Shown here piece after piece: positions 450 to 58,787 of a stretch of 64,000 nt of DNA. The translations under genes were made by a program, and so were the position numbers. Source of the DNA: Clostridia bacterium (GTDB lineage: Bacteria > Bacillota > Clostridia > Oscillospirales > CAG-272); assembly GCA_017482055.1 (NCBI GenBank), contig JAFUOH010000003.1:14222-78221 (forward strand), in the 5' to 3' direction. A model generated the notes under the pieces. That model ran no database searches, was not told the DNA's origin, and saw only the letters and a program-made list of their open reading frames with translations. The first letter of the stretch is position 1, and every line of letters begins with the position of its first letter.

Positions 450-2117
450 GTGAACAGACAGGAAGCTGAGAAAATCATAACCGAATATGTAAAGCCTATC
501 TTCGGCTTTGCGCTCAAACGCACAAAAAACCTGCACGACGCAGAGGACCTTTCGCAGGAAATCGTTCTGAAAGCTTTTCGTACGATGCTTTTAAAGGACG
601 ATATTTCCGACGCGGGAAAGTATATTTGGACGGTTGCGCACAATACGCTTGCAAACTATTACAGAGACTGTGCAAAAAGCATGATAGGCGTGTCTATCGA
701 CGAGGTAGCGGAGCTGATCGAGGATCCGGATTCCTCCGCCCAAGGCGATGAAACTGCGGAGTCGATCAATCGTATGCAGAGCGAAATAGCGTATCTGTCA
801 AAATTACAGCGTAAGATCGTGATCGCCTACTATTTTGAAAATAAAAAGCAGCAGACGATCGCAAAGGAGCTCGGTATACCGCTCGGTACTGTCAAATGGC
901 ACTTGTTTGAAGCCAAAAAAGAACTGAAACGAGGTATGGATACCATGAGAAAAGCAAGCGAGCTTAAATTCAACCCCATCAAATTCGAAAACTACGGTAT
1001 AAGCGGCGCCATCGGAACCAAGACGCTGGACACCTTCTTACGTTCGGCAATAGCGCAGAACATCTGCTACTGCGTGAGAAACGAGGCGATGACTGTGGGC
1101 GAGGTTGCCGACTGTCTGGGCGTTTCACCCGTGTATGTGGAAAGCGAAGCGGAATTTTTAGAGGAATACGGTTATCTTCGCAAGGTCGGTGATAAATACA
1201 TCGTCAACTTCATTATACACGAGCCCACCGCAGAGCTGTTGACCATGCAGAACGCGATGTACAGAAAAGCGGGCGCGCTGTTTGCAAACGCGCTGTACGA
1301 CGAGCTGACAAGTAGCGGTATACTCGATGACGCGGGAATTATCTGCAGTCAGACAGATGAGCCGATAAGCCTTACCGAGAGCCGTCGCGCGGACAAAAAC
1401 TATCTTCTGTGGACGCTGATACCCTATATCGCCGCACAATCGGGCGAGTCGCTGATAGAGGAGAAGATCACCTTTGACGAGGTCGCCACCCTACGTCCCG
1501 ACGGTGCGCACAACATCTGCAATGCAACGGTCATCACGGGGGACATGGTACTGCCCGATGACTATGTGTATGTAGAAAACTTGTGCGGTTCGAGCTGGTA
1601 CCGAGGCGATACCCATACACTGTGGCAGATCGACACCCGGTGGTCGGGCCGCAGAGTCAAGGTGGACAAAAGTTACTATGCTGAGTGTAGTCGCGTGCTT
1701 CATCTTTACGCTAAGGAGGATGATGGCATGCTTGACAAGGAGGATTACACCTGGCTTGCCGAGCGCGGCTTTGTCAAGACGAACGGCGACTTTGACGGAC
1801 ATTTCAAGTCCGCGTGGCAGGTGGTCACACTTGAAAACTCCGAGATCAAGAATAAACTGCTGGCAATCGGTACCGAAATCAAGAAAAAGTACAAGGAAGA
1901 ATTTGAAAAAATAAAGGCTCCGTACGTCGAAGCGATGTTGGCGTCGTACCCGGAGCACATGAAAAAGCAAAAGGCATACGAGCTGCAGTCTGTGTTCCAT
2001 TCCGACGGATGGTTCTTACTCCACTGCATAAACGCCCTGCTTGAAAACGGTAAGCTGAAGCCGCCGACGGAAAATCAGAAGCGAAGTGTGACAACGCTTA
2101 TATTCCCGAATAAGTAA
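450..2117 (+). CDS. Sigma-70 family (ECF-like) RNA polymerase sigma factor with a ~380-aa C-terminal extension
   Basis: 555-aa ORF with a GTG start 10 nt after AAGGAG. N-terminus has region-2-like sequence (DAEDLSQEIVLKAF...YIWTVAHNTLANYYR) and a region-4 HTH (QQTIAKELGIPLGTVKWHLFEAKKELKRG). A second HTH-like segment (MTVGEVADCLGVSPVYV) and a long uncharacterised tail follow. Confidence 0.8.
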   Translation: MNRQEAEKIITEYVKPIFGFALKRTKNLHDAEDLSQEIVLKAFRTMLLKDDISDAGKYIWTVAHNTLANYYRDCAKSMIGVSIDEVAELIEDPDSSAQGDETAESINRMQSEIAYLSKLQRKIVIAYYFENKKQQTIAKELGIPLGTVKWHLFEAKKELKRGMDTMRKASELKFNPIKFENYGISGAIGTKTLDTFLRSAIAQNICYCVRNEAMTVGEVADCLGVSPVYVESEAEFLEEYGYLRKVGDKYIVNFIIHEPTAELLTMQNAMYRKAGALFANALYDELTSSGILDDAGIICSQTDEPISLTESRRADKNYLLWTLIPYIAAQSGESLIEEKITFDEVATLRPDGAHNICNATVITGDMVLPDDYVYVENLCGSSWYRGDTHTLWQIDTRWSGRRVKVDKSYYAECSRVLHLYAKEDDGMLDKEDYTWLAERGFVKTNGDFDGHFKSAWQVVTLENSEIKNKLLAIGTEIKKKYKEEFEKIKAPYVEAMLASYPEHMKKQKAYELQSVFHSDGWFLLHCINALLENGKLKPPTENQKRSVTTLIFPNK

Positions 2118-2121
2118 AAAA

Positions 2122-2157
2122 ATATTGCCGAGGGCAAACGCTCTCGGCGATATTTTA
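2122..2157. terminator. Bidirectional rho-independent terminator between convergent genes
   Basis: Inverted repeat atattgccgag / ctcggcgatat (one G-T pair) flanked by an A-run on the left and a T-run on the right. It lies between the sigma stop (2117) and the uxaA stop (2160). Confidence 0.6.
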
Positions 2158-2159
2158 TG

Positions 2160-3530
2160 TTACAGCACGATTCCGTCCTTGAAAATGGAGATCTCGCGGT
2201 AATCGTTTTTCTCATTGGTGGTCTCCTTGCCCGAAGCAACGGAGATAATATAGTCGAAAAATTCCTCGGTCAGATCGTTTCCGTCAAGAATTGGGGAGGC
2301 ATCGAAGTCTATCCAGTTCTTCTTGACCGAAGCGAGGCGGGAATTGGTGGCAATCTTGACCGTAGGCACGGGGGCGCCTACAGGGGTGCCTCTGCCGGTG
2401 GTGAACAGCACCATGTGTACACCTGCCGCAGTGAGGTTGGTGATTGCGACGATATCGTTGCCGGGACCGTTCAAGAGTGACAGGCCGTTTTTCGACAGAG
2501 TGTCACCATAGTCAAGCACGTCCACCACCTCGGAAAGTCCGCCTTTTTGGATACAGCCGAGAGATTTTTCCTCAAGTGTGGTGATACCGCCCGCTTTATT
2601 GCCGGGAGAGGGATTTTCGTAGATCACTTGATCGTGTCTTGTGAAGTAGTCTTTAAAATCGTTAATAAGCGCCACTGTTTTGTCGAACAGCTCGCGTGTG
2701 CCGCAGCGCTTCATCAAAAGATGTTCCGCACCGAACATTTCGGGAACCTCGGTCAGCACACAGCTTCCTCCCAGGGAGATCAGCTTGTCGGAAAGTCTGC
2801 CCACAAGCGGATTTGCAGTGATGCCCGAAAAGCCGTCGCTGCCGCCGCATTTGAGTCCGAGCTTCAGCTTGGACACCGGGATGTGGACTCGTGTAAAGGT
2901 GTCGGCATATGCCTTTAATTCATCGATGAGCTTTACACCCTCGGCGATCTCATCATCAAAATCCTGACAGTTTAGGAACTTTACGCGCTTTTCGTTATAC
3001 GCGCCCAAAACCTTCTTAAATTCGCCGATGTTGTTATTCTCGCATCCGAGTCCAAGTACAAGTACGCCGCCCGCATTGGGATGGTTGACCAGACCCTTTA
3101 AAATGAGCTGCGTTTTTGCGTGGTCGTCGCCGAGCTGTGAGCAGCCGAAGGGGTGCTCAAATGCGTGTGCGCCCGTAAGCGCTGCGAGGCGCTTTGCAAC
3201 CTTGTTCACACATCCTACAGTGACGATTATCCAGACCTCATTGCGGATTCCAACATCTCCATTCTCGCGAACATAGCCCATGAAGGTCTTATCGGTGGGA
3301 ATGTGTACAGTTGGTGTATAATCGGGAGCGTATTCGTAGCTGATATTGCCCGAGAGGTTTGTTTTCATGTTGTGGCTGTGAACATGATCGCCGCATTTTA
3401 TATCCTCGGTAGCATGACCGATGGGGTTGCCGTATTTAATGATGTCCTCGCCCTTTTTAATATCCCGCAGCGCGTGCTTGTGACCGCTCGACAGATCGAC
3501 CTCGACATTGTCAAATTCGTGAATCCTCAT
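2160..3530 (-). CDS. uxaA: Altronate dehydratase (UxaA family, SAF N-terminal domain)
   Basis: 456-aa ORF with a GGAGGG RBS. The N-terminal SAF-like segment (ALRDIKKGEDIIKYGNPIGHATEDIKCGDHVHSHN) and the conserved core (GCENN, GLKCGGSDGFSGITANP, TGRGTP) are typical of UxaA/GarD-type dehydratases. Confidence 0.8.
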   Translation of the reverse strand: MRIHEFDNVEVDLSSGHKHALRDIKKGEDIIKYGNPIGHATEDIKCGDHVHSHNMKTNLSGNISYEYAPDYTPTVHIPTDKTFMGYVRENGDVGIRNEVWIIVTVGCVNKVAKRLAALTGAHAFEHPFGCSQLGDDHAKTQLILKGLVNHPNAGGVLVLGLGCENNNIGEFKKVLGAYNEKRVKFLNCQDFDDEIAEGVKLIDELKAYADTFTRVHIPVSKLKLGLKCGGSDGFSGITANPLVGRLSDKLISLGGSCVLTEVPEMFGAEHLLMKRCGTRELFDKTVALINDFKDYFTRHDQVIYENPSPGNKAGGITTLEEKSLGCIQKGGLSEVVDVLDYGDTLSKNGLSLLNGPGNDIVAITNLTAAGVHMVLFTTGRGTPVGAPVPTVKIATNSRLASVKKNWIDFDASPILDGNDLTEEFFDYIISVASGKETTNEKNDYREISIFKDGIVL

Positions 3531-3550
3531 TGTATGTTCCCTCCGATATC

Positions 3551-4837
3551 TTAAAGATACTTGGAAACTTCATCCGCGAGGAAAGAAAGATCCTCATCCC
3601 ACAGTGCCTTGTTTGCAAGGATGCTTTTAACGTCGGACTTTTTCATAAATTCCATTACCGCCGCGTCGTCATTCGGCATATCGGTCTTATAGAACGCGAT
3701 AAGCTTTGCAAAGGACATGATAAGGTTCTGCGGCATTTCTCCCTTGCGCTTGATGTATTCAAGCAGAGAGGGAAGCACACGAACCTTAAACTTGCTGACG
3801 GAGTTCAGCGATATAGAAGCGCAAAGATGTCTTATAAATGGGTTCTTGAAGCGCTCAAACACGTCGTCTGCGTAGTCAAGAAGCTCCTTTTCCGGAAGGT
3901 CAAGGGTGGGAATTATCTCCTCATACACACATTTCTTTACAAATGCGGACATTTTTTCGTTCTCCATGCAGTCGCCCACAGTCTCGATGCCTTCAAGCAT
4001 GGCGTAGGGGATCATAGAGGTGTGCGCACCGTTCAAGATGCGAACCTTGCGGGTTCTGTAGCGCTCAAGCTCGTCGGTGACGATTATATTGAGTCCGGCT
4101 TTATCGAACGGAAATTCCTTCACGATATCGCGGGGACCTTCGATGACCCAGAGATGGAACAGCTCACTGGTGTTAACCATGTTGTCCTCGTAGCCGAGGT
4201 CGATGACCTCATCCTTTGGGTAACCCGTAACGATACGGTCAACGAGGGTATTGCAGAATATGTTCTCACGCTCTACCCAGTTGGCAAACCCGTCGCCGAG
4301 CCCCCACAGCTTTGCGTAGTCGATTATGTACTTTTTAAGTGTGGAGCCGTTTTTGTCGATAAGCTCGCAGGGGAGAAAAATAAAACCGTGAAGTCCCAGA
4401 TCATATCGCTTTTTAAGCAACAGTGTTACCTTGGCGGGAAAGGTGACATTGGGAGCGTCCTCCGGCTTATCGTCGGCGGAAAACGCGATGCCCGCTTCGG
4501 TGGTGTTGGATACGATGAATCTGAAATCGGGATTTTCTGCAAGCTTGAGGTAAGCGGAAAAATCACGGTAAGGCTCAACACAACGGGAGATCACATCGAT
4601 TCGCTTTTTGTCAACGACGGGCTTACCATCGCGAAGCCCTCGCATGATGTGCGTGTACACGCAGTCCTGAGCCATCAGCTTATCGCACATACCCTTTTCG
4701 ATAGGCTGTACTATCACGACACTCGCATTGAAATCGGATGCTTCATTGGTGAGCTGTACTATCCAGTCAACGAAGCCGCGGAGAAATCCACCCTCGCCGA
4801 ATTGGATGATCTTTTCGATTCTTGTCGGTTTGTTCAT
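3551..4837 (-). CDS. uxaB: Tagaturonate reductase / altronate oxidoreductase (mannitol dehydrogenase family)
   Basis: 428-aa ORF with an AGAGG RBS. The N-terminal IQFGEGGFLRGFVDW motif and overall pattern are characteristic of UxaB. It ends 20 nt upstream of uxaA. Confidence 0.8.
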   Translation of the reverse strand: MNKPTRIEKIIQFGEGGFLRGFVDWIVQLTNEASDFNASVVIVQPIEKGMCDKLMAQDCVYTHIMRGLRDGKPVVDKKRIDVISRCVEPYRDFSAYLKLAENPDFRFIVSNTTEAGIAFSADDKPEDAPNVTFPAKVTLLLKKRYDLGLHGFIFLPCELIDKNGSTLKKYIIDYAKLWGLGDGFANWVERENIFCNTLVDRIVTGYPKDEVIDLGYEDNMVNTSELFHLWVIEGPRDIVKEFPFDKAGLNIIVTDELERYRTRKVRILNGAHTSMIPYAMLEGIETVGDCMENEKMSAFVKKCVYEEIIPTLDLPEKELLDYADDVFERFKNPFIRHLCASISLNSVSKFKVRVLPSLLEYIKRKGEMPQNLIMSFAKLIAFYKTDMPNDDAAVMEFMKKSDVKSILANKALWDEDLSFLADEVSKYL

Positions 4838-4910
4838 TAGTCTTTACCTCTTTTTTCTTAAATATATATACTACGATATATCGGCGGATGAACATACCGA
4901 CGGTATATCA

Positions 4911-5846
4911 TTATATATCGAACTGTGTCTTGTCAAGCTGCCAGTCTTCGCCCGCTCTGAAGGGCTTTCTGAATTTTTTCGTGAGCACGCCCTTTTGTTC
5001 AAGATGAATATAGCAGGCACGGTCACATGCCCTGCCGCAGATGGAGGAGCGGTAGGAATGCTTTGCGGGCGGATAGAAATAGGTGCTGTCCATTATCGAC
5101 TCGGCGGTCTCTCTGTCTGCCTTTACCTCGCCGTTTATGATCTCACGGCGGTTTTCAAAATCGCTGTACGCATTCGGAGGCATGAAAGGATTCTTTGCAC
5201 CGTTTGCGCCGTTATAGTAGACGGCACACTGCCAACGGTCGAGTTTTCCGCCGCTGGAAATCGCTTTACCGGGGCAGGCTTTGACACACTCTCCGCACTT
5301 GTCACAAAGGCTGTACTGCTCCTTCGGAGTAGGCTCTATCACCGCATCGGTCAGAATGAAGCAATAACGTATAAACGGACCGTATTCGCGGTTAATAATG
5401 CTTCCGCTGAGTCCGCGCTCGCCGATGCCGCATATCTCGGCAGTACGCTCGAAATCCATTTGCGCTTCGGGCACACCGCGCTTTATATCGGAATAGTCCA
5501 CCTCGGGATTTGTAGAATCAAGCTCGTTCATTATGGTCTGATGACGTCTTTGGGGAATGGCGATATAGTCCTCGTCCTCAAGCACCGATGCCGCACGCAG
5601 CATGGCAAAGGGCATTACCGTCTCTTCCAAGTTTTCCACGCCCATGGTGGTGTACTGATAATAGACCGTACCTTCCTCAACGCCGCGGTAAAGTCCGCGC
5701 AGTACGCGGAAACCGAGTGCAATGACGGTTTTTACTTCCGGGAATATCTTAAATATCGCATCATCCGAAGAAAACTCGGATGCACTTGTGAAGGTCACTA
5801 CATCGGCATCATGCTTTTTCGCGATAGCTGTTATCTTATCTCTCAT
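4911..5846 (-). CDS. RdhA/QueG-like double [4Fe-4S] protein, paralog C
   Basis: Internal ATG at 5846 has an AGAGGTG RBS and forms an ATGA overlap with the upstream stop. Motifs seen: INREYGPFIRYCFILTDA, CDKCGECVKACPG, WQCAVYY, CGRACDRAC. The track start at 5900 would overlap the upstream gene by 58 nt. Confidence 0.75.
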   Translation of the reverse strand: MRDKITAIAKKHDADVVTFTSASEFSSDDAIFKIFPEVKTVIALGFRVLRGLYRGVEEGTVYYQYTTMGVENLEETVMPFAMLRAASVLEDEDYIAIPQRRHQTIMNELDSTNPEVDYSDIKRGVPEAQMDFERTAEICGIGERGLSGSIINREYGPFIRYCFILTDAVIEPTPKEQYSLCDKCGECVKACPGKAISSGGKLDRWQCAVYYNGANGAKNPFMPPNAYSDFENRREIINGEVKADRETAESIMDSTYFYPPAKHSYRSSICGRACDRACYIHLEQKGVLTKKFRKPFRAGEDWQLDKTQFDI

Positions 5847-6745
5847 TTCGACACCTCTTTTCTGTGCTTTTCGCAGGCAAGCTCGCATTTCTTTGCACAT
5901 AAGCAGGGAACATATCCGAAATGGGTCGGTGGTAAGAAATTAAGCTTCGGATAAAGTGCTCTCGCGCTCTCTTTGTCAAAGCGCTTGGTGCCGTTTATGA
6001 TGTCCTCACGCTCGGGATCGTCCTTTAAGAAATCCTCGGTCATGAAGGGATTTGATTTGTGTGCGCCGCGGTAGTATACTGCGCACTGCCAGGTGTCAAC
6101 GCCGTCCTTCGATATGGCATTTCCGGGACATGCCTTGATGCACTCGCCGCAGCCATCGCACACCTCGCCTGTAAAGGGAGGATCGCATTCAAGCGGCGCA
6201 TCGGTCACGATGTACACAAATCGCAAAAACGTGCCGTATTCGGGGGTTATGACCTTGCCGTGGAGTCCGACCTTACCGAGTCCGCAGACCTCTGCGGCAA
6301 GATTTGTGTCGATTATTACCTCGGGGGCGGGCTTCCCGTCCTCAACGGGACTTGAAAACTCCAACTCGTATGTATCCTTTACCTCCGGATTGGTAGTAGG
6401 GTCACCTTTGACCTTCATGCCGGGGACATTGCGCTGCAGACAGGCATCGTAGCCCGCATTTTCTATAATTGCGCCGAGCTTTAAGAGAAAAATTTCCGCA
6501 AAGGTCTCGTCTATGTATTTTACGCCGAGACTGGTGTAAGTGTAATACTGATTCTTATTCTCCATCGCACGGTAAAGTCCCTTGGGAACTCGTATTGCAC
6601 AGCCAATAACGCATTTTGCGGCGGGGAGAATTGAAAACGGGTTATGGCGCGGATCTACATCACGGAAAAGCTCCGCGTCGCCGATACCGCACAGTACCGC
6701 GCCGAGCTCCAGCGCCTTTTCTTTTATAATTTTTGAAGTAAGCAT
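5843..6745 (-). CDS. RdhA/QueG-like double [4Fe-4S] protein, paralog B
   Basis: 300-aa ORF with an AAAGGA RBS inside the end of the cupin gene. Motifs seen: ITPEYGTFLRFVYIVTDAPLECD, CDGCGECIKACPGNA, WQCAVYY, CLCAKKCELAC. Confidence 0.8.
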   Translation of the reverse strand: MLTSKIIKEKALELGAVLCGIGDAELFRDVDPRHNPFSILPAAKCVIGCAIRVPKGLYRAMENKNQYYTYTSLGVKYIDETFAEIFLLKLGAIIENAGYDACLQRNVPGMKVKGDPTTNPEVKDTYELEFSSPVEDGKPAPEVIIDTNLAAEVCGLGKVGLHGKVITPEYGTFLRFVYIVTDAPLECDPPFTGEVCDGCGECIKACPGNAISKDGVDTWQCAVYYRGAHKSNPFMTEDFLKDDPEREDIINGTKRFDKESARALYPKLNFLPPTHFGYVPCLCAKKCELACEKHRKEVSK

Positions 6746-6746
6746 T

Positions 6747-7094
6747 TTATACGGTCATCCTTTCTGTATCTTCGGGGCGGAGTGCGGCGTTTTCCGCAAC
6801 TGCCAAAAAAGCGTCGCGGCTGATTGCAAGCGAATGCCACGTGGCTTTTTTCACACAGTAGACTTTGCCGTGCTCCATCGGTATCGCTTCGAGCGCTTTG
6901 CCGTCCTCCGTCGTGTAGAGGCAAGCCTCGCCGCGTACAAGCACAAACACCTCATCTGTGGTCATATGGCGGCTCAGCTTTTGATGGTTTTCTGCGCTGT
7001 ACTGCTCGGCGTATGTGATGGCGGCTATCTGCCAGCCCTCGGAACCGAAAAGCACGTCGAAGCCATCCTTTTGCGGAGTGTAAGCTTCTATCAT
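6747..7094 (-). CDS. Small cupin-like protein (about 115 aa)
   Basis: Start chosen at the ATG at 7094 (MIEAYTPQKDG...), which has a GGAGG RBS and an ATGA overlap with the upstream stop. The pattern HMTTDEVFVLVRGEACLY...KATWHSL looks like a small beta-barrel/cupin. The fold call is tentative. Confidence 0.6.
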   Translation of the reverse strand: MIEAYTPQKDGFDVLFGSEGWQIAAITYAEQYSAENHQKLSRHMTTDEVFVLVRGEACLYTTEDGKALEAIPMEHGKVYCVKKATWHSLAISRDAFLAVAENAALRPEDTERMTV

Positions 7095-8173
7095 CGGTCG
7101 AGCCTCCATGCCTTCTTTGTGCGAAGGGGTGCCTTGAAGCGACCTTCCATGCATCCGCCCTTCTTTTCGAGCATCGACACACAGGCGCGTATGCATCCGC
7201 CGCACTTTGCCATATTATAACCCACCCAGCTTGGAAAATACTTTTCAAGCGCAGTGTAGACCTTGACGACTTCCTTTTCATTTGCATCGTCGGTCACGCC
7301 CTCCAAAAGATCAAGGGTACCGTTTTCGTTTTTGTCAAAGACCTCTTTGGGTACAAAAGGATTGTAGTATCTGCCGCCGTGAGTGTAGAAGGCGTAACAG
7401 CGCCACATATCAATATCGCCCCACTCGCATTTTTTACCGTCGAGATCCACGGTGATCGTTTTGCCTGAGTTTATAGGCGGAATGCACCCACCGGGACATT
7501 CACGCACGCAGGCACCGCATTTTCTGCAAAGCGGCTCGCCGTTATACATCTCGTCGTACTCATCAAATTCCGCGTCGGTGAAGATAAACGCAACGCGCTG
7601 AAGCGGACCGAATTCTGGAGTCAGCAGCATCTTTGAGTAGCCGATCTCACCGAGTCCGCAGGCAACCGCCGCGAGTCTGAAATGAAACTGCAGATCCGGC
7701 GGCACTTTGCTTTCATCTACGGCACGAGTAAACTGTACGCTTCTGTGGTGCGCGGTCTTACCCTTGGCGTGCTTTGACACTTCTATCTGCTCCTCGGGGG
7801 AGAGGGAGTTGCCGGGAGAACCGTCCATATCGGATACAGCGCCGCGTGCGCCCGTGTTGCGGTAGATGAACGCCTCATAGCCCTCATCCTCGATAACGCG
7901 TCCCACATGGTGAAGCACTGCGGGAGCATAGATCTCGTTGATCCCGCCGTATGCCATGGATGGATACTGGTAGAACTGAGTACCCTCCTCTATACCGCGC
8001 TGTGTACCGCGCGGAATGCGGAACACAAAGCCGATGATGCTCTTTACTCCCGGAAAGAGGAAGTTAGGATCCATAACGTCGGGTGCGCCGCGCAGACGTG
8101 ATACGGGAGCGATACCGCAGGCATCTGCGCCCGCTTCCAGTGCGGCTTCTTTAATAAGCTTATTCTTTAGCAT
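7091..8173 (-). CDS. RdhA/QueG-like double [4Fe-4S] protein, paralog A (carries a ~60-aa insertion)
   Basis: 360-aa ORF with an AAGGAGG RBS. Motifs seen: LTPEFGPLQRVAFIFTDA, CRKCGACVRECPGG, WRCYAFY, CGGCIRAC. An extra segment (GARGAVSDMDGSPGN...PPDLQFHF) has no counterpart in paralogs B and C. Confidence 0.8.
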   Translation of the reverse strand: MLKNKLIKEAALEAGADACGIAPVSRLRGAPDVMDPNFLFPGVKSIIGFVFRIPRGTQRGIEEGTQFYQYPSMAYGGINEIYAPAVLHHVGRVIEDEGYEAFIYRNTGARGAVSDMDGSPGNSLSPEEQIEVSKHAKGKTAHHRSVQFTRAVDESKVPPDLQFHFRLAAVACGLGEIGYSKMLLTPEFGPLQRVAFIFTDAEFDEYDEMYNGEPLCRKCGACVRECPGGCIPPINSGKTITVDLDGKKCEWGDIDMWRCYAFYTHGGRYYNPFVPKEVFDKNENGTLDLLEGVTDDANEKEVVKVYTALEKYFPSWVGYNMAKCGGCIRACVSMLEKKGGCMEGRFKAPLRTKKAWRLDR

Positions 8174-8220
8174 ATACTGCCTCCTTTATATTATCTCATA
8201 TTACTTGGTTTGTGTCAATA

Positions 8221-9207
8221 CTAATTCGTGCCATTTTTTATGGGAAATGACCGTGTTTCAGAGTATACCAGCTTCTTTTCGCATATCGTGCCCGCAACGT
8301 CGCAGCCGGGAAAACCTGTAGGCTCAAACAGCGCGCTGTGGTTAGGTTCGAGCAGAGCGGTAAGATTTCCCGCCCACTTGCCTGTACAGTAGGCGCGGAG
8401 GATCTTTTCTGGCGCTTCGCTTACTCTTGTGGCAAGCTTCACATGGGTAAAATATTTTTCGTATAGGTGGATGTCCTCGGGCCGGACGAAGTTTGTGCAG
8501 TCAAGGAATCTTTTGCGGTTTCCTTCCTTCGAAAGAAAGCTCTTGCACACGCCCTCGAATGTGAAGGCGTTGTCCATTTTCACGATATCGTTTTCATGTG
8601 CCACCAAATTGTCATGGAACACATGGGCGGAGCAGTGGTTGAGACATCCGCTGTTGGCAAGCATGTGCAGGCGCTTGCCGTTTTCGCAGCACCAAGCCGT
8701 CAGCTCCTCTATTTTTGAAAAATCGCGGTTTAGCTCCCGCTTTAAATAAAAACCATCGAAGTGATCCGAGAGATATTCCATTCCCTCCACGGTGCCGATC
8801 TCCATATTTACGGAGGCGCGTACCGAGACACCCTCAAAATTGTTTTTTATGAATTTTGCGATTATTGGAGAGGTGGTGGTCACCGAATCTGTGCCGTAAG
8901 CCGATATGCAGTAGTCCAGCGTATCGCCGAGCTTATTATAAAATGCTCGCGACAGCGTATCCTCACCGTAGCACATGGCGTTGAGAAGCAGATTCATGGA
9001 AAAGCCGCATCCCGCAAGCTCGCGAAGCTCCGCATCCTGACGTACTGCGGCTTCGGCAGGTGAAAATCCGTCATTCCAGGAATCTCCTCTGCCATTCGGT
9101 ATACCGATGACCGAAAAATATATCTCACCGATCGAGTCACGGTATGTTTTTATTGCCTCCATAAAAGAGTCATTATCCGTCAGTCGGTATCCGACCGAAA
9201 ATTTCAT
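8221..9207 (-). CDS. Cys-rich protein, possibly peptidase-U32-like / TIM-barrel; first gene of the cluster
   Basis: 328-aa ORF with a GGAGGTG RBS. The N-terminus MKFSVGY...EIYFSVIGIPNGRG and the segment LANSGCLNHCSAHVFH resemble short U32-family (collagenase-like) proteins as I remember them. I cannot confirm the family assignment without an HMM search. Confidence 0.7.
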   Translation of the reverse strand: MKFSVGYRLTDNDSFMEAIKTYRDSIGEIYFSVIGIPNGRGDSWNDGFSPAEAAVRQDAELRELAGCGFSMNLLLNAMCYGEDTLSRAFYNKLGDTLDYCISAYGTDSVTTTSPIIAKFIKNNFEGVSVRASVNMEIGTVEGMEYLSDHFDGFYLKRELNRDFSKIEELTAWCCENGKRLHMLANSGCLNHCSAHVFHDNLVAHENDIVKMDNAFTFEGVCKSFLSKEGNRKRFLDCTNFVRPEDIHLYEKYFTHVKLATRVSEAPEKILRAYCTGKWAGNLTALLEPNHSALFEPTGFPGCDVAGTICEKKLVYSETRSFPIKNGTN

Positions 9208-9447
9208 ATATAATCACCTCCGTAAAGAGCTGTTGCAAATTCCCAATATAATTATACATAAAAATTGCGTCAGTAGTATAAGTAAACAAAGCCGAAATAT
9301 AATAAACCAAAGATAGAAATCGTAGTGTGTTGGCTTTATGTCTTTCGAGGCGATGCTTTGCCGTGGAAATAAAATGCTTATGGAGGCTTGGTTGTTAAAA
9401 CTAACTAATTACATTGTTACATTATTGTTAAATATGCTATGCAAATC

Positions 9448-9476
9448 TTGAAATAGAGCTGAATATGAGGTATAAT
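9448..9476 (+). promoter_or_regulatory. Sigma-A type promoter for the ABC exporter operon
   Basis: TTGAAA, a 17-nt spacer, then TATAAT, about 45 nt upstream of the start codon. The palindrome gttagg-tt-cctaac (9478-9491) lies at the predicted transcription start. Confidence 0.6.
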
Positions 9477-9521
9477 AGTTAGGTTCCTAACGATTTTCGG
9501 GAATATTATTTCGCAAAAGAG

Positions 9522-11273
9522 GTGTTACACTTGATAAAACGGCTTGCGGGCTGTATCAGAGAGTATAAGCTACCGTCGATACTTACACTTATCTTTATCG
9601 TAGGTGAAGCGGTCATCGAGACTTTTATCCCGTTTATTACCGTCGATCTTGTAAACAGTATCAAGGACGGCGTCGAGATGGACTCGATAATCAAAACCGG
9701 ATTATTGCTCGTTCTGATGGCGTGCCTGTCGCTTACCTGCGGTGGTGTTGCGGGCTTTACCTGTGCTAAAGCTTCTGCGGGATTTGCAAAAAATCTGCGC
9801 CACGATATCTTCCGCCGCATCCAAGCTTATTCCTTTGAGAATGTTGACAAATTTTCTTCAACGTCCCTTGTTACCCGTATGACAACGGATGTTACGAATG
9901 TGCAGATGGCGTATATGATGCTTATCCGCACGGCGATCCGCAGTCCGCTCATGTTTATTTTCTCAATAATCATGGCGTATGTTATGGGCGGAGCGCTTGC
10001 CACTACTTTTGTGGTCATCGTACCGTTCCTCATCTGTGGACTTCTGTTTGTCAGCCATAAGGCTATGCCTGCATTCAGAAGCGTGTTCCGCAAATACGAT
10101 AAGCTCAACGAATCCATTGAGGAAAATGTTCGCGCGATGCGCGTTGTAAAGGGCTATTCGCGTGAAGAGCACGAGAAGCGGAAGTTCGGTGCCGCGGCTG
10201 AAGATATCCGCCGCGATTTTACAAGAGCCGAGCGCATCGTTGCGCTGAACGGACCCATCATGCAGGTCTGCCTGTATTTTAACATGATCTTCGTACTGCT
10301 TGTGGGCTCCAAGATGATCATCACAAGCGGTGGTACCGAAATCTATGTGGGTCAGATCTCGGCAATGCTTACTTACGGTATGCAGATACTTATGTCCCTT
10401 ATGATGCTTTCCATGATCTATGTCATGCTTACCATGTCCTCGGAATCCATAAAGCGCATTTGCGAGGTTTTGGCAGAGGAGCCTGTACTCAAAAATCCAA
10501 AAAACGCAATAACCGAGGTAAAAGACGGCTCTATTGATTTTCGTGGTGTCAGCTTCAAATATTCTGCGAAGGCGGAAAAATATGCCCTTGCCGATATCGA
10601 ACTGCATATAAAATCGGGTATGACCGTAGGTATTCTCGGCGGTACCGGATCGGGCAAATCTACGCTGGTGCAGCTTATCCCGCGTCTTTACGATACTACC
10701 GAGGGAAGTGTCCGCGTGGGCGGCGCAGACGTGCGTGAGTACGATCTTGATACTCTTCGCGGCTCTGTTGCGATGGTACTTCAGAAGAATCTGCTGTTTT
10801 CCGGAACGATCAAAGAGAATCTCAGATGGGGCAACAAGGACGCCACCGACGAGGAGATCACCGAGGCATGCCGTCTTGCACAGGCGGATGAGTTCGTTCG
10901 CTCCTTCCCCGACGGATACAATACCATGATCGAACAGGGCGGTACCAATGTGTCGGGCGGTCAGAAGCAGCGCCTTTGTATCGCACGTGCGCTTCTTAAA
11001 AAGCCGAAGATACTCATCCTCGATGATTCCACAAGCGCTGTGGACACCAAGACCGACATGCTTATCCGCGAGGGCTTCAAGCGCTACATCCCCGAGACTA
11101 CCAAGATAATCATCGCACAGCGTGTGGCTTCCGTACAGGATGCGGACATGATCATTGTTATGGATAACGGAAGAATATCTGCCGCAGGTACTCATGACGA
11201 GCTGCTCACATCGAGTGAGATATACCGCGAGGTGTTCGCTCAGCAGACAAAGGGAGGTGACGGGAATGAGTAA
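9522..11273 (+). CDS. ABC exporter, fused permease/ATPase, subunit 1 (degenerate Walker B)
   Basis: 583-aa ORF. The TTG at 9531 is an alternative start with better spacing to AAAGAGG. It has a six-helix TMD followed by an NBD with Walker A GGTGSGKST, signature VSGGQKQR and Walker B ILILDDS (Asp where the catalytic Glu normally sits). Confidence 0.9.
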   Translation: MLHLIKRLAGCIREYKLPSILTLIFIVGEAVIETFIPFITVDLVNSIKDGVEMDSIIKTGLLLVLMACLSLTCGGVAGFTCAKASAGFAKNLRHDIFRRIQAYSFENVDKFSSTSLVTRMTTDVTNVQMAYMMLIRTAIRSPLMFIFSIIMAYVMGGALATTFVVIVPFLICGLLFVSHKAMPAFRSVFRKYDKLNESIEENVRAMRVVKGYSREEHEKRKFGAAAEDIRRDFTRAERIVALNGPIMQVCLYFNMIFVLLVGSKMIITSGGTEIYVGQISAMLTYGMQILMSLMMLSMIYVMLTMSSESIKRICEVLAEEPVLKNPKNAITEVKDGSIDFRGVSFKYSAKAEKYALADIELHIKSGMTVGILGGTGSGKSTLVQLIPRLYDTTEGSVRVGGADVREYDLDTLRGSVAMVLQKNLLFSGTIKENLRWGNKDATDEEITEACRLAQADEFVRSFPDGYNTMIEQGGTNVSGGQKQRLCIARALLKKPKILILDDSTSAVDTKTDMLIREGFKRYIPETTKIIIAQRVASVQDADMIIVMDNGRISAAGTHDELLTSSEIYREVFAQQTKGGDGNE

Positions 11274-13185
11274 GCCCCAAAATGATATGAAAACGCCGAA
11301 GCGCAGTCTTGATCTGCGCACACTCGGACGCGTCATAAAAATGCTCTTTGAAGCCTATCCCCGCCTTGTCCCGCTTACTGCGATATGCATTCTGTTTTCA
11401 GCCATAGTATCGGCGATACCGTCACTTTTCCAACAGAGAGTTCTGGCGGCAATTGAAAAATGGTATGTGCTCCGCGATTGGGAGAGTGCCAAGGAGGAGA
11501 TATTACCTCTTATATTTATCCTGATCGGTTTGTATATCCTTTCACTGGCGTCGATCACTCTGTATAATCAGCTTATGGCATATATCACCCAGGGCTTCCT
11601 CAGCAAGATGCGAATTAAAATGTTTGACGGCATGCAGGACTTGCCCATACGTTATTTTGACACCAACAAGCACGGTGACATCATGAGCCACTATACAAAC
11701 GATATTGACACGCTGCGACAGCTGGTATCGCAGTCGCTTCCCGCACTGCTCCAGTCGGTGGTCATTGTCGTAGTAGTGTTCTCCATTATGCTGTGGTACA
11801 GCATCCCCATGACGCTTATAGTTGTTCTCGGTGTTTTTGCTATGCTGTTTGTATCAAAAAAGATCGGCGGCGGTTCTGCGAAATATTTTATACGTCAGCA
11901 GATGGCGGTGGGTAAGACCGAGGGCTTTGTGCAGGAGATGATGAACGGTCAGAAGGTCATCAAGGTATTCTGCCACGAGGATGAGAGTAACGAGGACTTC
12001 GACAAGATCAACAATGCTCTCTATGAGGACAGCTACCGCGCAAACGCGTATGCAAACACCATGGGTCCCATTATCGGAAATATCGGCAATGTGCTCTATG
12101 TACTGCTTGCTACAATAGGTGCGCTTCTGCTTCTGTCGGGGGCGACCAATATCAGCATCTCGGGAATGGCGTTCAGCATCAGCATCATAGTGCCGTTCCT
12201 TAACATGACCAAGCAGTTCACGGGTAATATCAACCAGCTCTCTCAGCAGTTCAACTCCATTGCAATGGCGGGTGCAGGTGCAAAGCGAATCCTTGCGCTG
12301 ATGGATCGAGAGCCCGAGGCAGATGACGGATATGTTACCCTTGTCAATGCCAAGATCGACGAGAGCGGCAACATCACTGAGACCACCGAGCGCACAGGTA
12401 AGTGGGCATGGAAGCATCCCCACAGCGACGGCACTCTCACCTATACCGAGCTGCGCGGAGATGTACGGCTCAACGAAGTTGATTTCGGCTACGAGGATGA
12501 TAAGTTAGTGCTCCATGACGTGTCTGTCTACGCCGAACCCGGTCAGAAGGTGGCGTTTGTTGGCGCGACAGGTGCGGGCAAGACTACCATCACCAACCTT
12601 ATCAACCGCTTCTATGACATTGACGACGGTAAGATCCGCTACGACGGCATCAATATCAATAAGATAAAGAAGTCCGATCTGCGCCGCTCGCTTGGCATAG
12701 TTTTACAGGAGACCAACCTGTTCACGGGAACGGTAATGGATAATATCCGCTACGGACGCCTCGATGCCACCGATGCGGAGTGCATCGAAGCTGCGAAGCT
12801 TGCGGGCGCGGATGACTTCATAACCCGTCTGCCCGATGGCTACAACACCGAGCTCACCAACAATGGCGCCAATCTATCACAGGGACAGCGTCAGCTTATC
12901 GCAATCGCTCGTGCGGCTGTAGCCGATCCGCCCGTTATGATACTTGACGAGGCAACCTCCAGTATCGACACCCGCACTGAGGCGATAGTTCAGCGCGGTA
13001 TGGATAAGCTGATGGAGGGCAGAACAGTGTTCGTTATCGCTCACCGCCTTTCCACGGTCATGAACTCCGACGTTATCATGGTTCTTGACCATGGTCGTAT
13101 AATCGAGCGCGGCAATCATGAGAAGCTCATTGAAGAAAAGGGCACCTACTACCAGCTGTATACAGGTGCGTTTGAGCTTGAGTAA
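11266..13185 (+). CDS. ABC exporter, fused permease/ATPase, subunit 2 (canonical Walker B, degenerate signature)
   Basis: The ATG at 11266 (MSKPQNDMKTPKRS...) overlaps the upstream stop. Walker A is GATGAGKTT, the signature is LSQGQRQL and Walker B is VMILDEATS. The track start at 11155 lies inside the upstream gene. Confidence 0.9.
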   Translation: MSKPQNDMKTPKRSLDLRTLGRVIKMLFEAYPRLVPLTAICILFSAIVSAIPSLFQQRVLAAIEKWYVLRDWESAKEEILPLIFILIGLYILSLASITLYNQLMAYITQGFLSKMRIKMFDGMQDLPIRYFDTNKHGDIMSHYTNDIDTLRQLVSQSLPALLQSVVIVVVVFSIMLWYSIPMTLIVVLGVFAMLFVSKKIGGGSAKYFIRQQMAVGKTEGFVQEMMNGQKVIKVFCHEDESNEDFDKINNALYEDSYRANAYANTMGPIIGNIGNVLYVLLATIGALLLLSGATNISISGMAFSISIIVPFLNMTKQFTGNINQLSQQFNSIAMAGAGAKRILALMDREPEADDGYVTLVNAKIDESGNITETTERTGKWAWKHPHSDGTLTYTELRGDVRLNEVDFGYEDDKLVLHDVSVYAEPGQKVAFVGATGAGKTTITNLINRFYDIDDGKIRYDGININKIKKSDLRRSLGIVLQETNLFTGTVMDNIRYGRLDATDAECIEAAKLAGADDFITRLPDGYNTELTNNGANLSQGQRQLIAIARAAVADPPVMILDEATSSIDTRTEAIVQRGMDKLMEGRTVFVIAHRLSTVMNSDVIMVLDHGRIIERGNHEKLIEEKGTYYQLYTGAFELE

Positions 13186-13200
13186 TCACCGAATAAAAAT

Positions 13201-13240
13201 TATCGACCGTATCGGATGCATGCATCCTGTACGGTCGATA
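13201..13240. terminator. Bidirectional terminator hairpin
   Basis: Long near-perfect hairpin tatcgaccgta...ggatgcatgcatcc...tacggtcgata between the convergent ABC (stop 13185) and PPIase (stop 13246) genes. Confidence 0.7.
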
Positions 13241-13245
13241 TTGTA

Positions 13246-14697
13246 TCAGCCGGGAATCATATCAAGCACGGTATCGTCGAATATTACCGTGTACTGCATT
13301 GAGACTGCTTCAAGATAGGCATCAAAGCGCTCGGATATGATGTGCTCGGCCACATCAGCCTGCCATTCTTCGCTTCCTGCAGACTCAAAGAGCATCACAT
13401 GGACTCCGAGATCGGTCTCAATAATGTCTGTATCTCCAGCGCGGCGGTCGGGATCAAAGCACCATTCGTCAAAAGTGTCCACCATCTGCCCCTGCGTTAT
13501 GTTTTTATACATACCGCCGCTGTAATATGAGCCTTGATCCTCCGAATATTCAAGAACCAGCAGTGCGAAGTCATCGGAGTCCATTCCCTCGTTTTTGATT
13601 TGTGAGAGCAGCTCCTTCGCTTTTGCAGATGCTCCCTCGCGGCTTCCGTAAGTGGTGTCGGAGAGCAGAATATGGCGTACAGTCACAGTATCGGATTCAC
13701 TGCGGTAAGGCTCGGCGGTGAGCATATAGACGGTGTACATCGTATTCTCGGCATCATGAACGCTCAGCGTGTCTCCCACATTTGCGGAAAATGCCCACTC
13801 GGACACTTCACTGCCATCGCTCCATTTCGCGCCGATAGTTTTAAGCGATTGGAGTTTTGCCGTCATGTCATCCTCGCTTATGTCCGAGCCGTCCGAGCGC
13901 ATAAGCGCTTCTATGGCTTCAATAAAAGCTTTCTCGTTTTCGGATGCCGCGAGTTCTTCCGCTATGGCGATTATATCAGCTTCTGTATAACCCTCGGGGT
14001 CGTCGGCGGTTCCTTCGGTGTCATAGTAGAGCGAAAACGAATAATAGTCAACTGTCTGAAACTGCTTTGGGTCCTCGGCGAAGTATGCCGTGATCTCCGC
14101 CTCTGAGGGGGTGAGGTCGGCTTCCTTTATAATTCGGTACTTATAGGCGAGCGCTTCGAGCAATCTCGCATTATAGATGTCGTCGCTGTTGACTCCGCGC
14201 CCGTACAGACTCGCAACTGTACTGTCGGCGCGTTTTTTAATTGCGGCTTTTTCAGCTTCGGTCAGCGTGACGCCGTCATCTTTTGCGGCTTCATTGAGTG
14301 TGAGCACCGTTGTAACTGTGCTCTCAGCCGCGCTCATAAAATATTCAAACCAACTCTCGCCGTCGCTGAGCTCCTGATCCTTGAGAGAAATACTCGTATC
14401 AAGTCCGAAATATTCAAGATAGCTTCCGTAGTAATCCGTGAAGGTATGATAAATATCGCCGTAAAAATAGCTCATCACCGAGCCGTTAACGTCGATGTTC
14501 CTTGAGGATGCGGCGAGCTTACCGCGCAGATACTCACCGTTGTTAATCCTTGCGTTATACGCAGTAAGACCTGCGGTAATGACCACAGCTATGACAAGGA
14601 TGACCGATATTGTTGCAATAGCGGTGATCCTTCTGATCTTTTTTAGGGTTTGCCGATGTTCTTCACGTTCGGCTTCAAGCCGCTTAGCCTTTGACAT
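13246..14697 (-). CDS. Membrane-anchored parvulin-type peptidyl-prolyl isomerase (PrsA/SurA-like)
   Basis: 483-aa ORF with a GGAGGC RBS and an N-terminal TM anchor (ITAIATISVILVIAVVITAGL). The C-terminal PpiC/rotamase pattern is VRHILL...GGMYKNITQGQMVDTFDEWCF...DLGVHVMLF. Confidence 0.8.
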   Translation of the reverse strand: MSKAKRLEAEREEHRQTLKKIRRITAIATISVILVIAVVITAGLTAYNARINNGEYLRGKLAASSRNIDVNGSVMSYFYGDIYHTFTDYYGSYLEYFGLDTSISLKDQELSDGESWFEYFMSAAESTVTTVLTLNEAAKDDGVTLTEAEKAAIKKRADSTVASLYGRGVNSDDIYNARLLEALAYKYRIIKEADLTPSEAEITAYFAEDPKQFQTVDYYSFSLYYDTEGTADDPEGYTEADIIAIAEELAASENEKAFIEAIEALMRSDGSDISEDDMTAKLQSLKTIGAKWSDGSEVSEWAFSANVGDTLSVHDAENTMYTVYMLTAEPYRSESDTVTVRHILLSDTTYGSREGASAKAKELLSQIKNEGMDSDDFALLVLEYSEDQGSYYSGGMYKNITQGQMVDTFDEWCFDPDRRAGDTDIIETDLGVHVMLFESAGSEEWQADVAEHIISERFDAYLEAVSMQYTVIFDDTVLDMIPG

Positions 14698-14873
14698 ATA
14701 CTGCCTCCGAAAAAATTAAAGATATGTTTTTATAATATCACACTATTGTGGGCGAAACTTTAACAAGCTGTGAAAAATATTTGATTTTTACCCGCATATG
14801 TGGAATACATACCGCGTACGGCGTAATAATATAGCATGAGTGCTTATTTTTTTGTTTAAACGGGGGAAAACGC

Positions 14874-15956
14874 TTGGAAAAAAAGAAGAGCTTCCTTATT
14901 TCGGCGGTATATTATCTCACCATTGCCGCGATCATATTCCTTATTTTCAAATACGCCATTTTTATTGTGATGCCGTTTCTGATCGGATTTGCCATAGCGG
15001 CTATTCTCAACCCCACCGTTAGATTTTTCTGCGGCAAATTTGATATGAAGCGCCGACCGACGGCACTGCTTATATTGCTGATCTTTTATGCCACTATAGG
15101 AATGCTTGCGACTATCCTGGTGGTGAGGCTTGCGGTGATGATCGGAGATTTTTCGGGACGGCTCCCCTCGCTTTATGCTGATACTATTGAACCTGCGCTT
15201 GTAAAGGGGTTTGAATTTATAAACCGCTTGCTTTCAAGATTTGACGGACCGGAGGAAAGCGATTTTGCCGAGACCTTGGCGGGAATTTTTAACTCGATCA
15301 AAAACTCGCTTGGCGGTGCGGTGTCGGACATATCCGTAAGAGCGCTTGCATGGCTGTCGGGCTTTGCCGCCTCAATTCCGAAATTCGTGATCGAGCTTTT
15401 GTTTGCGGTGATATCCAGCTTTTTCTTTATTGTTGACTATGAAAAGCTGATATCCTTGGCAAAATCCCGACTGCCGAGGAGGGCAGTCGGGATAATGACG
15501 GATCTGAGAGACAGATTCTTTTCAACGGTGATAAAATACATCCGCTCCTACGCGCTTATAATGCTCATCACCTTCGCTGAGTTGTTTTTGGGGCTTATCA
15601 TTATCGGTACCGAAAACGCGGTGATGTATGCGCTGATCATCTCACTGCTTGATGTGCTTCCGGTAGTTGGAACGGGAGCCGTCATGATACCGTGGGCACT
15701 TGTTGAGTTGATACGCGGTCATGTAGGATATGCTGTAGGACTGCTTGCCATCTGGGGGGTCATCACCGTGGTGCGAAATATAATCGAGCCGAGGATCGTC
15801 GGCAAAGAGGTAGGACTTCATCCGTTGCTGACGCTTGCGGCAATGTTTGTGGGAAGCAAGCTGCTTGGTTTTATCGGATTGATCCTACTGCCTATCGGGC
15901 TGTCTATAATCATGTCCGTTCTTCGGGAGCGGGATCAATCGTCGTCGGGGATGTAG
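14874..15956 (+). CDS. AI-2E family transporter / sporulation integral membrane protein YtvI-like
   Basis: 360-aa polytopic membrane ORF with a TTG start after GGGGGAAAA. The C-terminal motif PVVGTGAVMIPWA...IIEPRIVGKEVGLHPL is typical of the PerM/AI-2E family. It ends in TAG at 15954-15956 and overlaps the convergent protease gene by 22 nt. Confidence 0.75.
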   Translation: MEKKKSFLISAVYYLTIAAIIFLIFKYAIFIVMPFLIGFAIAAILNPTVRFFCGKFDMKRRPTALLILLIFYATIGMLATILVVRLAVMIGDFSGRLPSLYADTIEPALVKGFEFINRLLSRFDGPEESDFAETLAGIFNSIKNSLGGAVSDISVRALAWLSGFAASIPKFVIELLFAVISSFFFIVDYEKLISLAKSRLPRRAVGIMTDLRDRFFSTVIKYIRSYALIMLITFAELFLGLIIIGTENAVMYALIISLLDVLPVVGTGAVMIPWALVELIRGHVGYAVGLLAIWGVITVVRNIIEPRIVGKEVGLHPLLTLAAMFVGSKLLGFIGLILLPIGLSIIMSVLRERDQSSSGM

Positions 15957-18808: not shown

Positions 18809-18818
18809 TTTGGACACC

Positions 18819-21845: not shown

Positions 21846-22022
21846 TATCCGTACCGTTCCTTGATTTTTTTGCAATATACTGCAATTATACCATCTTTTC
21901 GTGATAAAATCAATGGAATATTTATGTATAGTATGAAAAATAAATATTTTATCAAATTAGCGGTTAATGCAGAATAAGTTACATTTGCGCATATTCGGGT
22001 TACATTATGACATAAAACGTAC

Positions 22023-22051
22023 TTGACCGAAATGAAAACATCTGCTATAAT
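22023..22051 (+). promoter_or_regulatory. Sigma-A type promoter for the alpha-galactosidase gene
   Basis: TTGACC, a 17-nt spacer, then TATAAT, about 30 nt upstream of the ATG at 22083. Confidence 0.6.
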
Positions 22052-22082
22052 AAAAGCAGAAAAATTACATGGAGGATGTAAT

Positions 22083-53613: not shown

Positions 53614-53632
53614 AGTGGTGCTCCTTTCGTTT

Positions 53633-54790: not shown

Positions 54791-54918
54791 ACGAATACTC
54801 CTTACATAAACTATTTCCGACATATTATCGGATGCTTATATCTAATTATACCATGTATCACGGCTTTTGCACAGTGCGAAAATTGCTGTTTGACAGTACA
54901 TTTTTTGCTGTATTTTTA

Positions 54919-57405: not shown

Positions 57406-57410
57406 ACAAA

Positions 57411-57441: not shown

Positions 57442-57449
57442 TGCGTAAA

Positions 57450-58742: not shown

Positions 58743-58787
58743 AATCATATCTCCGTTTATGTACATAGGTTTATCTTATGTAACTTA

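Follow-up and report, generated by a model that had tools for sequence, protein, structure and literature searches.

Five minus-strand genes in a Clostridia contig (JAFUOH010000003.1) raise the question of what a U32-like protein (here U32L), three QueG/RdhA-like iron-sulfur (Fe-S) paralogs (A, B, and C), and a cupin do together, and why they stand directly before uxaB and uxaA. The stretch of 64,000 nucleotides in which they lie is called the window throughout. A sequence-only reading of the window had coupled all seven genes into one hexuronate-related system. We found that U32L-A-(cupin)-B-C is real, widespread, and without a name in databases, and that it very probably represents one conserved Fe-S enzyme system; its coupling to uxaB-uxaA is not conserved. 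We propose, with a probability of roughly 0.45, that the five genes running from 8221-9207 to 4911-5846 are an operon for a multi-subunit Fe-S oxidoreductase that would act on a sugar-derived substrate.

The evidence for a single system comes from gene order in other species. Scanning one genome per species across 185,579 species genomes confirmed at least 565 U32L relatives among at least 599 pattern matches, and synteny was examined in the best 80 of the at least 565 U32L-bearing species, all represented by Clostridia metagenome-assembled genomes (MAGs) that come from gut or rumen where the record names a source; neighbors were annotated from mechanical open reading frames (ORFs) and partial Pfam surveys. 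The arrangement U32L-A-(cupin)-B-C is kept in order and strand in 54 of the 80 species, so that the packing of the five genes is not due to chance, and about 63 possess all of U32L, A, B, and C. U32L-A-B-C accounts for 31 loci and U32L-A-cupin-B-C for 23, four loci carry C-B-A divergent from U32L, seven have U32L alone, and the rest are truncated or variant; the cupin also occurs elsewhere in the locus in several more. Chance adjacency of the module genes is thereby ruled out, and the idea that the five upstream genes belong together stands, as a conserved and uncharacterized module whose members bear generic names only. Database clusters (3,567 for U32L and 1,968 for B) are nearly all nameless, the rare exceptions being "hypothetical protein," "QueG" (two automatic labels in JGI entries, both on B homologs), and a single "ferredoxin," and a cluster look-up of nine module proteins returned only "hypothetical protein" or "ferredoxin." Full-text literature searches with partial coverage (U32 with RdhA/QueG, DUF5696, and QueG paralogs with AraC) found no description of the module.

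Two variant loci deserve separate mention. In L077, a single 612-aa ORF (11436-13274) joins a B-like half (residues 43-301) to a C-like half (305-608), which may be genuine or may result from misassembly by 1 nt where the ATGA overlap would lie. In L035, a complete MAG chromosome (CP091729.1), the module at 11989-15738 appears fragmented, A being split into two ORFs and C into three, through either pseudogenization or long-read indel errors.

In the window, the seven genes are as follows (aa, amino acids).

8221-9207, minus strand: U32-like protein U32L, 328 aa, TIM barrel, candidate [4Fe-4S] protein
7091-8173, minus strand: paralog A, 360 aa, QueG/RdhA fold, two [4Fe-4S] motifs
6747-7094, minus strand: cupin, 115 aa from an internal ATG (the mechanical ORF reaches 7205), optional member
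5843-6745, minus strand: paralog B, 300 aa, QueG/RdhA fold, two [4Fe-4S] motifs
4911-5846, minus strand: paralog C, 311 aa from the ATG overlapping the B stop (the mechanical ORF reaches 5900), QueG/RdhA fold, two [4Fe-4S] motifs
3551-4837, minus strand: uxaB, tagaturonate reductase, 428 aa
2160-3530, minus strand: uxaA-type altronate/galactarate dehydratase family protein, 456 aa

What kind of proteins are these? Paralogs A, B, and C share 31-39% pairwise identity (39% between B and C) and recover one another in phmmer searches at E=1e-38 to 1e-61. Profile searches against QueG, RdhA, and U32 models, which the sequence-only reading had proposed as a check, returned matches that were all below the curated cut-offs. 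The QueG model TIGR00276 (cut-off 200 bits) scored 22.9 bits with A, 50.9 with B, and 48.5 with C, the match being limited to the core of the model at about positions 94-211 of 337, and the reductive dehalogenase (RDH) model TIGR02486 (cut-off 160.35 bits) scored 33.9, 49.1, and 37.3 bits, respectively; all of these values are far under threshold, and these two families are the only ones that the three proteins match. The best match in the PDB was QueG (5d08), at E=1.1e-8 for B alone and 5.8e-12 for a profile, with PceA-type dehalogenases next. An AlphaFold2 (AF2) model of B (pLDDT 83) led Foldseek to QueG (E~1e-8), RdhA (1e-7 to 1e-5), then CblC/CblD and nothing else. The family assignments given earlier for all seven products therefore hold, with the module members placed as remote superfamily members.

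QueG, represented by the B. subtilis (5d08) and S. thermophilus (5d6s) structures, is thus the best match to A, B, and C in both structure and sequence, and the likeness extends to a collinear layout of an N-terminal CblC-like alpha-beta-alpha domain followed by a ferredoxin-like domain. The cluster ligands of B. subtilis QueG are C188-X2-C191-X2-C194-X3-C198...C214...C240-X2-C243-X3-C247 (PMC5175355). We mapped QueG residues by HMMER profile alignment (chain numbering offset 28) and by a separate sequence alignment, and all eight cysteines have counterparts in A (C216/219/222/226/259/324/327/331), B (C196/199/202/206/221/283/287/291), and C (C181/184/187/191/207/270/274/278), each kept by 97% or more of the orthologs. 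Judged from these residues, the three paralogs are shown to hold complete predicted ligand sets for six [4Fe-4S] clusters, and A reproduces the CX2CX3C spacing of QueG exactly. C has nine conserved cysteines in 67 sequences.

The differences from QueG are equally clear. Identity in structural alignment is about 14-17%, and the module paralogs have a longer insert between the cluster motifs. QueG carries a C-terminal HEAT-like tRNA-binding domain at Leu257-Leu385 (PMC5175355), which is absent from A, B, and C; only 9 residues follow the last cluster cysteine in B, about 29 in A, and about 33 in C, whereas QueG extends about 130 residues further. Arg141 of QueG lies 4 Å under the corrin (PMC5175355), and its position is taken by an invariant Arg166 in A, by Asn in B, and by Glu in C. 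In the region of the catalytic Asp134/His106 pair of QueG, B residues ~57-147 gave no HMMER alignment with QueG. Six residues after the Arg141 position and outside the eight cluster ligands, an invariant cysteine (C172 in A, C154 in B, C139 in C) replaces the Ala of the QueG "ERAGIG" loop. The module also differs from QueG in its organization, with three co-encoded paralogs, a U32-like partner, and AraC control. Conservation is uneven among its members: A has a median identity of 84% to its orthologs in 70 species, and conservation reaches at least 97% at 162 of its 360 positions, 12 Cys and R166 among them, compared to median identities to the window proteins of 65% for B, 62% for C, 51% for U32L, and 40% for the cupin.

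Respiratory RdhA (PceA 4uqu, NpRdhA 4ras, and the RDH complex 8q4h) belongs to the same fold class and shows the same cluster arrangement (profile E=4e-11), and the core motif "GLG...G...ITPE(Y/F)G...R" is common to it and the module paralogs. These paralogs nevertheless lack the twin-arginine translocation (TAT) leader, the ~140-175-aa N-terminal region, and the adjoining rdhB anchor of RdhA, and their setting is gut glycan catabolism rather than organohalide respiration. The N-termini of A, B, and C (MLKNKLIKEAALEAG, MLTSKIIKEKALELG, and MRDKITAIAKKHD, respectively) have no RR motif and hence no TAT leader; position 4 of the profile already aligns with PceA residue 146, and position 6 with residue 178 of RDH 8q4h. 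No gene for a small, rdhB-like membrane protein was found in the block. Organohalide respiration was ruled out on these grounds (no TAT leader, no RdhB, and sub-threshold scores).

U32L had no Pfam or NCBIfam match at E<=0.01, and its Peptidase_U32 (PF01136) score of 13.2 bits (E=0.053) is under the 22.4-bit cut-off. Peptidase_U32 was the commonest sub-threshold match of its orthologs (10 of 24, best E=5.4e-4), and Foldseek with the AF2 model (pLDDT 86) placed U32 peptidase Mk0906 (5d88) on top (E=6.5e-10, TM 0.66 normalized to the target), the next TIM barrels following at E>=7.6e-5, five orders of magnitude weaker. The modeled structure of U32L is a remote U32-type (beta-alpha)8 barrel, closest to Mk0906 within a family that also contains UbiU/UbiV, TrhP, and RlhA. 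Residues C79, C173, C188, C192, C221, H195, H198, and H204 are kept in at least 97% of 80 sequences. The U32 oxidase [4Fe-4S] motif is CX6CX15CX3C (PMC11574389), and C173-X14-C188-X3-C192 of U32L puts three of its four cysteines roughly in register. The first cysteine of CX6C is missing, with no Cys 7 residues before C173; the invariant C79 or C221, elsewhere in the sequence, could supply a fourth ligand, and U32L is a probable candidate for a further [4Fe-4S] site. U32L differs from the U32 enzymes additionally in its catabolic, AraC-regulated setting with QueG/RdhA-like partners, which is not described for U32 enzymes in the literature found. In L068 a U32L ortholog (2766-5924) is fused to a ~720-aa C-terminal extension with "NNT/NNS"-like repeats resembling a beta-helix and with no Pfam or NCBIfam match; this fusion adjoins an AraC gene and a DUF5696 gene, and no A, B, or C gene was found on its 7-kb contig.

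The cupin scored 16.1 bits with Cupin_2 (PF07883, cut-off 27.2) and 22 bits with the WbuC-family model TIGR04366 (cut-off 42). Every one of 37 orthologs keeps its H43, E48, and H87, and R42 is likewise a conserved residue. The module proteins thus fall outside QueG, respiratory RdhA, and Pfam Peptidase_U32, with which they have folds and cofactor sites in common.

The neighbors of the module in other species point to sugar metabolism. In 67 of the 80 loci, a divergent AraC-family regulator (cupin and HTH_18) precedes U32L at a distance of about 113 nt. The co-directional gene after C encodes a Gfo/Idh/MocA oxidoreductase of ~420 aa in 24 loci, the family being present in 28, and a DUF5696 protein of ~560 aa follows C in 10 loci and is present in 15. 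The nearest solved relative of the former is DgpA (E=2.5e-16), with GH109 also matched, and that of the latter is a GH129 alpha-N-acetylgalactosaminidase (E=6e-18); weak NCBIfam matches of the Gfo/Idh/MocA neighbor to glycoside/disaccharide 3-dehydrogenases and levoglucosan dehydrogenase lie far below the equivalog cut-offs. Other neighbors include GH3, GH31, GH38, GH28, GH101-like/DUF6259, rhamnosidase, and heparinase II/III-like proteins, beta-lactamase-fold and GDSL esterases, and sugar ATP-binding cassette (ABC) permeases. These surroundings agree with the broad notion of an anaerobic Fe-S module linked to sugar metabolism, and we consider a role in carbohydrate or glycoside catabolism somewhat better than an even bet. 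The Gfo/Idh/MocA gene after C recalls the glycoside 3-dehydrogenase pathways (DgpA; BT_2158/BT_2159; levoglucosan dehydrogenase), of which the window itself has no such gene; to our knowledge, oxidative glycoside-cleavage pathways use xylose-isomerase-like lyases, not Fe-S proteins. A radical-SAM/SPASM "metalloenzyme maturase"-like gene accompanies the module in nine loci, which hints at a maturation step needed in some species. In L034 such a gene (5139-6131) stands beside or inside the module and scores 241 bits with TIGR04317 (tungsten cofactor oxidoreductase radical SAM maturase), for which the cut-off is 380.

We propose the following mechanism for the module. Its product would be a cytoplasmic, oxygen-sensitive, multi-subunit Fe-S oxidoreductase, assembled as a complex from a U32-type TIM barrel with a likely [4Fe-4S] site, three QueG/RdhA-fold subunits with two clusters each, and an optional metal-binding cupin. 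Given that A is by far the most conserved paralog and has an Arg at the QueG Arg141 position, it is the likely catalytic subunit and perhaps binds a corrinoid as QueG does, with B and C most likely serving as electron relay or scaffold. The precedents are QueG, which turns an epoxide into an alkene, and RdhA, which reduces C-X bonds: low-potential electrons would pass along the cluster chain to the site in A, where a C-O or similar bond may be reductively cleaved or reduced. The enzyme would act on a small, sugar-derived molecule freed in glycan breakdown, and the flanking NAD-dependent sugar oxidoreductase, mostly a DgpA/GH109-like Gfo/Idh/MocA protein, may perform a neighboring redox step. 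Reductive chemistry with a corrinoid in A is the least certain part of this scheme, and we hold it to be rather unlikely.

Several observations weigh against the scheme. The usual AraC and Gfo/Idh/MocA partners are missing from the window. U32L occurs without A, B, and C nearby in 7 of the 80 loci, at least two of which are cases where the contig ends just after U32L, and the partnership is therefore not obligatory; three loci with U32L alone (L006, L040, and L069) offered no informative substitute partner, only a ZnuABC-type transporter, an esterase, VanY, a citrate transporter, and an LRR/TIR protein. Genes beyond AraC are heterogeneous, some of them CAZymes and many housekeeping, so glycan-related genes are enriched around the module without being universal there. 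No sequence signature marks corrinoid binding, for which the sole hint is a single aligned Arg that B and C do not have, and the window contains neither a cobalamin riboswitch (Rfam) nor a B12 gene. Lastly, the U32 enzymes characterized so far are hydroxylases, which are oxidative, so the chemistry may run in either direction.

Transcription signals in the window bear on how far the module extends. The seven co-directional minus-strand ORFs, their coordinates, overlaps, and gaps agree in every case with those reported earlier (ORF table and junctions read base by base): ATGA stop/start overlaps join A to the cupin (7091-7094) and B to C (5843-5846), a single nucleotide (6746) separates the cupin from B, and 20 nt separate uxaB from uxaA. 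Shine-Dalgarno-like sequences precede A (AAGGAGG), B (AGAAAGGA), C and uxaB (both AAGAGG), and uxaA (GGAGGG). The noncoding features are these.

9208-9521, minus strand: 5' leader and promoter region of the module, AT-rich, common to the divergent ABC-exporter genes
8174-8220, minus strand: U32L/A gap, 47 nt, with a promoter-like site and a strong ribosome-binding site
4838-4910, minus strand: C/uxaB gap, 73 nt, without a terminator; a promoter-like site spans the end of C
2114-2148, minus strand: intrinsic-terminator-like hairpin and T-run 3' of uxaA, from a scan and sequence reading

The leader holds a promoter-like CTGACG-17-TATATT at 9273-9245 and, in contrast to most other species, no AraC gene. 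In the U32L/A gap, TTGACA-17-GATAAT with an upstream TG (extended -10) at 8218-8190 on the minus strand gives 11 of 12 matches; no equivalent promoter-like site was found in the U32L/A gap of the nearest relative, locus L081, and because of this the site may be a chance occurrence and is given little weight. The scan found no terminator-like site on the minus strand between 9207 and 2160, the sole such site downstream of 9207 being the hairpin after uxaA (TTGCCCTCGGCAA then TATTTTTTTA at 2137-2125 in the scan, read as GCCGAG...CTCGGC plus a T-run). Neither a riboswitch nor a cobalamin element came up in Rfam searches of the whole window at the gathering threshold and of 2000-9700 at E<=1. A convergent ECF-sigma gene (450-2117) lies at one end of the block and a divergent ABC-exporter pair (9522-13185) at the other. 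The ECF-type sigma factor (plus strand) has regions 2 and 4 in residues 1-165, fused to a ~390-aa C-terminal extension without a clear domain. The exporters (plus strand; ABC_membrane and ABC_tran; mechanical ORFs of 583 and 676 aa overlapping by ~120 nt) sit where most species carry the AraC regulator, and L081 has the same pair.

Does the module then feed the altronate branch, as its position before uxaB and uxaA suggests? Such a function would make the five genes the front end of the Ashwell pathway, converting a decorated uronate or sugar acid to tagaturonate or altronate, with all seven genes as one functional operon. The two downstream products are ordinary members of their families: UxaB passes the tagaturonate reductase model NF002969 (547.1 bits over residues 4-420, cut-off 359) and has Mannitol_dh and Mannitol_dh_C domains, and UxaA has both GD_AH domains (GD_AH_second E=1.6e-43, GD_AH_C E=9.7e-101) and reaches 244 bits with the galactarate dehydratase model TIGR03248, of which the cut-off is 731. 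The 25 Pfam families seen most often in the remaining ORFs of the window did not include uxaC. As far as we know, the textbook Ashwell pathway needs no Fe-S reductase module. Co-directionality, tight spacing, and the lack of a terminator-like site before the end of uxaA speak for one operon, as does L081, whose layout equals that of the window (ABC exporters, module, uxaB-like gene) and whose U32L and B are 77% and 91% identical to those of the window and the gene after C 93% identical to uxaB. UxaB moreover fills the slot held by an NAD-dependent sugar dehydrogenase in other species, and genes that suit uronate polysaccharides adjoin the module in some relatives: in L086, AraC and the module stand beside GH28 and a weak ulvan-lyase-like match, together with two Amidohydro_2 proteins and an FGGY kinase, and L082 has a heparinase II/III-like protein. 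Against this, uxaB follows C only in the window and L081, and a phmmer search (E<1e-5) of all ORFs within 10 kb of the module found UxaA/UxaB homologs in 0 of the 80 species. The sequence-only reading had named co-occurrence with uxaA/uxaB in other Clostridia as a check, with block occurrence away from hexuronate genes counting against its proposal, and it is the latter that we found. Relatives with B 80-83% identical carry the usual partners instead (AraC and/or Gfo/Idh/MocA; L085, for instance, has the module with Gfo/Idh/MocA). The 133-nt C-uxaB gap of L081 cannot be aligned with the 73 nt of the window and contains a perfect sigma-70 promoter (TTGACA-17-TATAAT), and a similar site (TTGACA-18-AATGAT) lies at the C/uxaB boundary of the window (4936-4907); uxaBA therefore probably has its own promoter. 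Given the absence from the 80 species and the usual partners in slightly more distant relatives, the adjacency is, as far as these genomes indicate, a young, lineage-specific local arrangement, and it is an unsuitable basis for annotating the module. As no terminator lies between C and uxaB, read-through from the module into uxaBA is possible, and the GH28 and heparinase-like neighbors leave a weak residual tie to uronate polymers, but the uronate front end as a whole is unlikely. Under the sugar-directed oxidoreductase that we prefer, the module product may or may not enter the altronate-to-KDG route in the lineage of the window.

Three further explanations concern the chemistry rather than the neighbors of the module. 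U32L could itself catalyze the reaction, hydroxylating or oxidizing a sugar-derived or aromatic substrate without O2 in the manner of UbiU/V, TrhP, and RlhA, with A, B, and C as an electron-accepting wire and a net oxidative outcome. All characterized Fe-S U32 enzymes perform O2-independent hydroxylation (PMC11574389, PMC10990095), and the CX14CX3C motif, the many invariant polar residues, the seven loci with U32L alone, and its fusion to a large extra domain in L068 would suit such a role; yet A is the more constrained protein (84% versus 51% median identity), which is unusual for a mere electron wire, and U32L scores under the Pfam cut-off and has no counterpart of the first oxidase-motif Cys, leaving this explanation about as improbable as the uronate front end. 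A slightly less probable alternative places the reaction on an aromatic aglycone from plant polyphenol glycosides or xenobiotics, whose ring the module would dehydroxylate, dehalogenate, or otherwise reduce. Aromatic or heteroaromatic rings are substrates of RdhA and U32 enzymes alike, the habitat is gut or rumen, and a DgpA-like oxidoreductase, GH3 beta-glucosidases, and rhamnosidase nearby are typical of flavonoid deglycosylation, DgpA originating from C-glycoside deglycosylation; the GH129-like, GH101-like, GH28, GH38, and heparinase-like neighbors and uxaBA here nonetheless indicate glycans, and no known polyphenol-pathway gene turned up in the neighbor surveys. Housekeeping RNA modification, combining QueG-like epoxyqueuosine reduction with U32-type tRNA/rRNA hydroxylation, is very improbable. 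It is true that the closest characterized relatives of both protein types modify RNA and that the two JGI labels on B homologs read "epoxyqueuosine reductase QueG," but QueG equivalog scores of 23-51 bits against a cut-off of 200 and the missing HEAT tRNA-binding domain contradict it, and three paralogs, AraC-type regulation, and a patchy spread among catabolic genes would be unexpected for housekeeping tRNA enzymes.

Elsewhere in the window, two large tandem ORFs of 960 and 1018 aa occupy 15935-21875 on the minus strand; they presumably encode the two S8 subtilases, bearing PA and Fn3-like domains, that the window survey reported. A GH36 melibiase lies at 22023-24293. A second glycan-utilization cluster (52456-60565) comprises tandem GlcNAc 2-epimerase (AGE) genes (52456-53613 and 53633-54823), an AraC-family regulator (54919-55851), a 370-aa protein without a Pfam match (56002-57114), a 438-aa class II aldolase-family protein (57450-58766), and a GH127-like protein (58970-60565).

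Here, we describe one conserved module that joins the QueG/RdhA fold, in three paralogs, to a U32-like barrel, a combination that is new. We know of only two established chemistries in the QueG/RdhA B12/Fe-S class, dehalogenation and epoxyqueuosine reduction. Its proteins are of known kinds, yet new chemistry is a real possibility. In its most far-reaching form, which we put forward as a speculative and rather unlikely case, it would be a new class of enzyme complex in which three QueG/RdhA paralogs, at least one with a corrinoid, and a U32-type barrel of gut and rumen Clostridia either reduce a carbohydrate-derived substrate or take it through an O2-independent oxygen transfer. If that case is true, the QueG/RdhA superfamily would gain its first member directed at sugars, and the U32 family its first catabolic enzyme. 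Identification of the substrate of the module could reveal a new anaerobic reaction in the breakdown of dietary or host glycans, or a new use of corrinoids in the gut.

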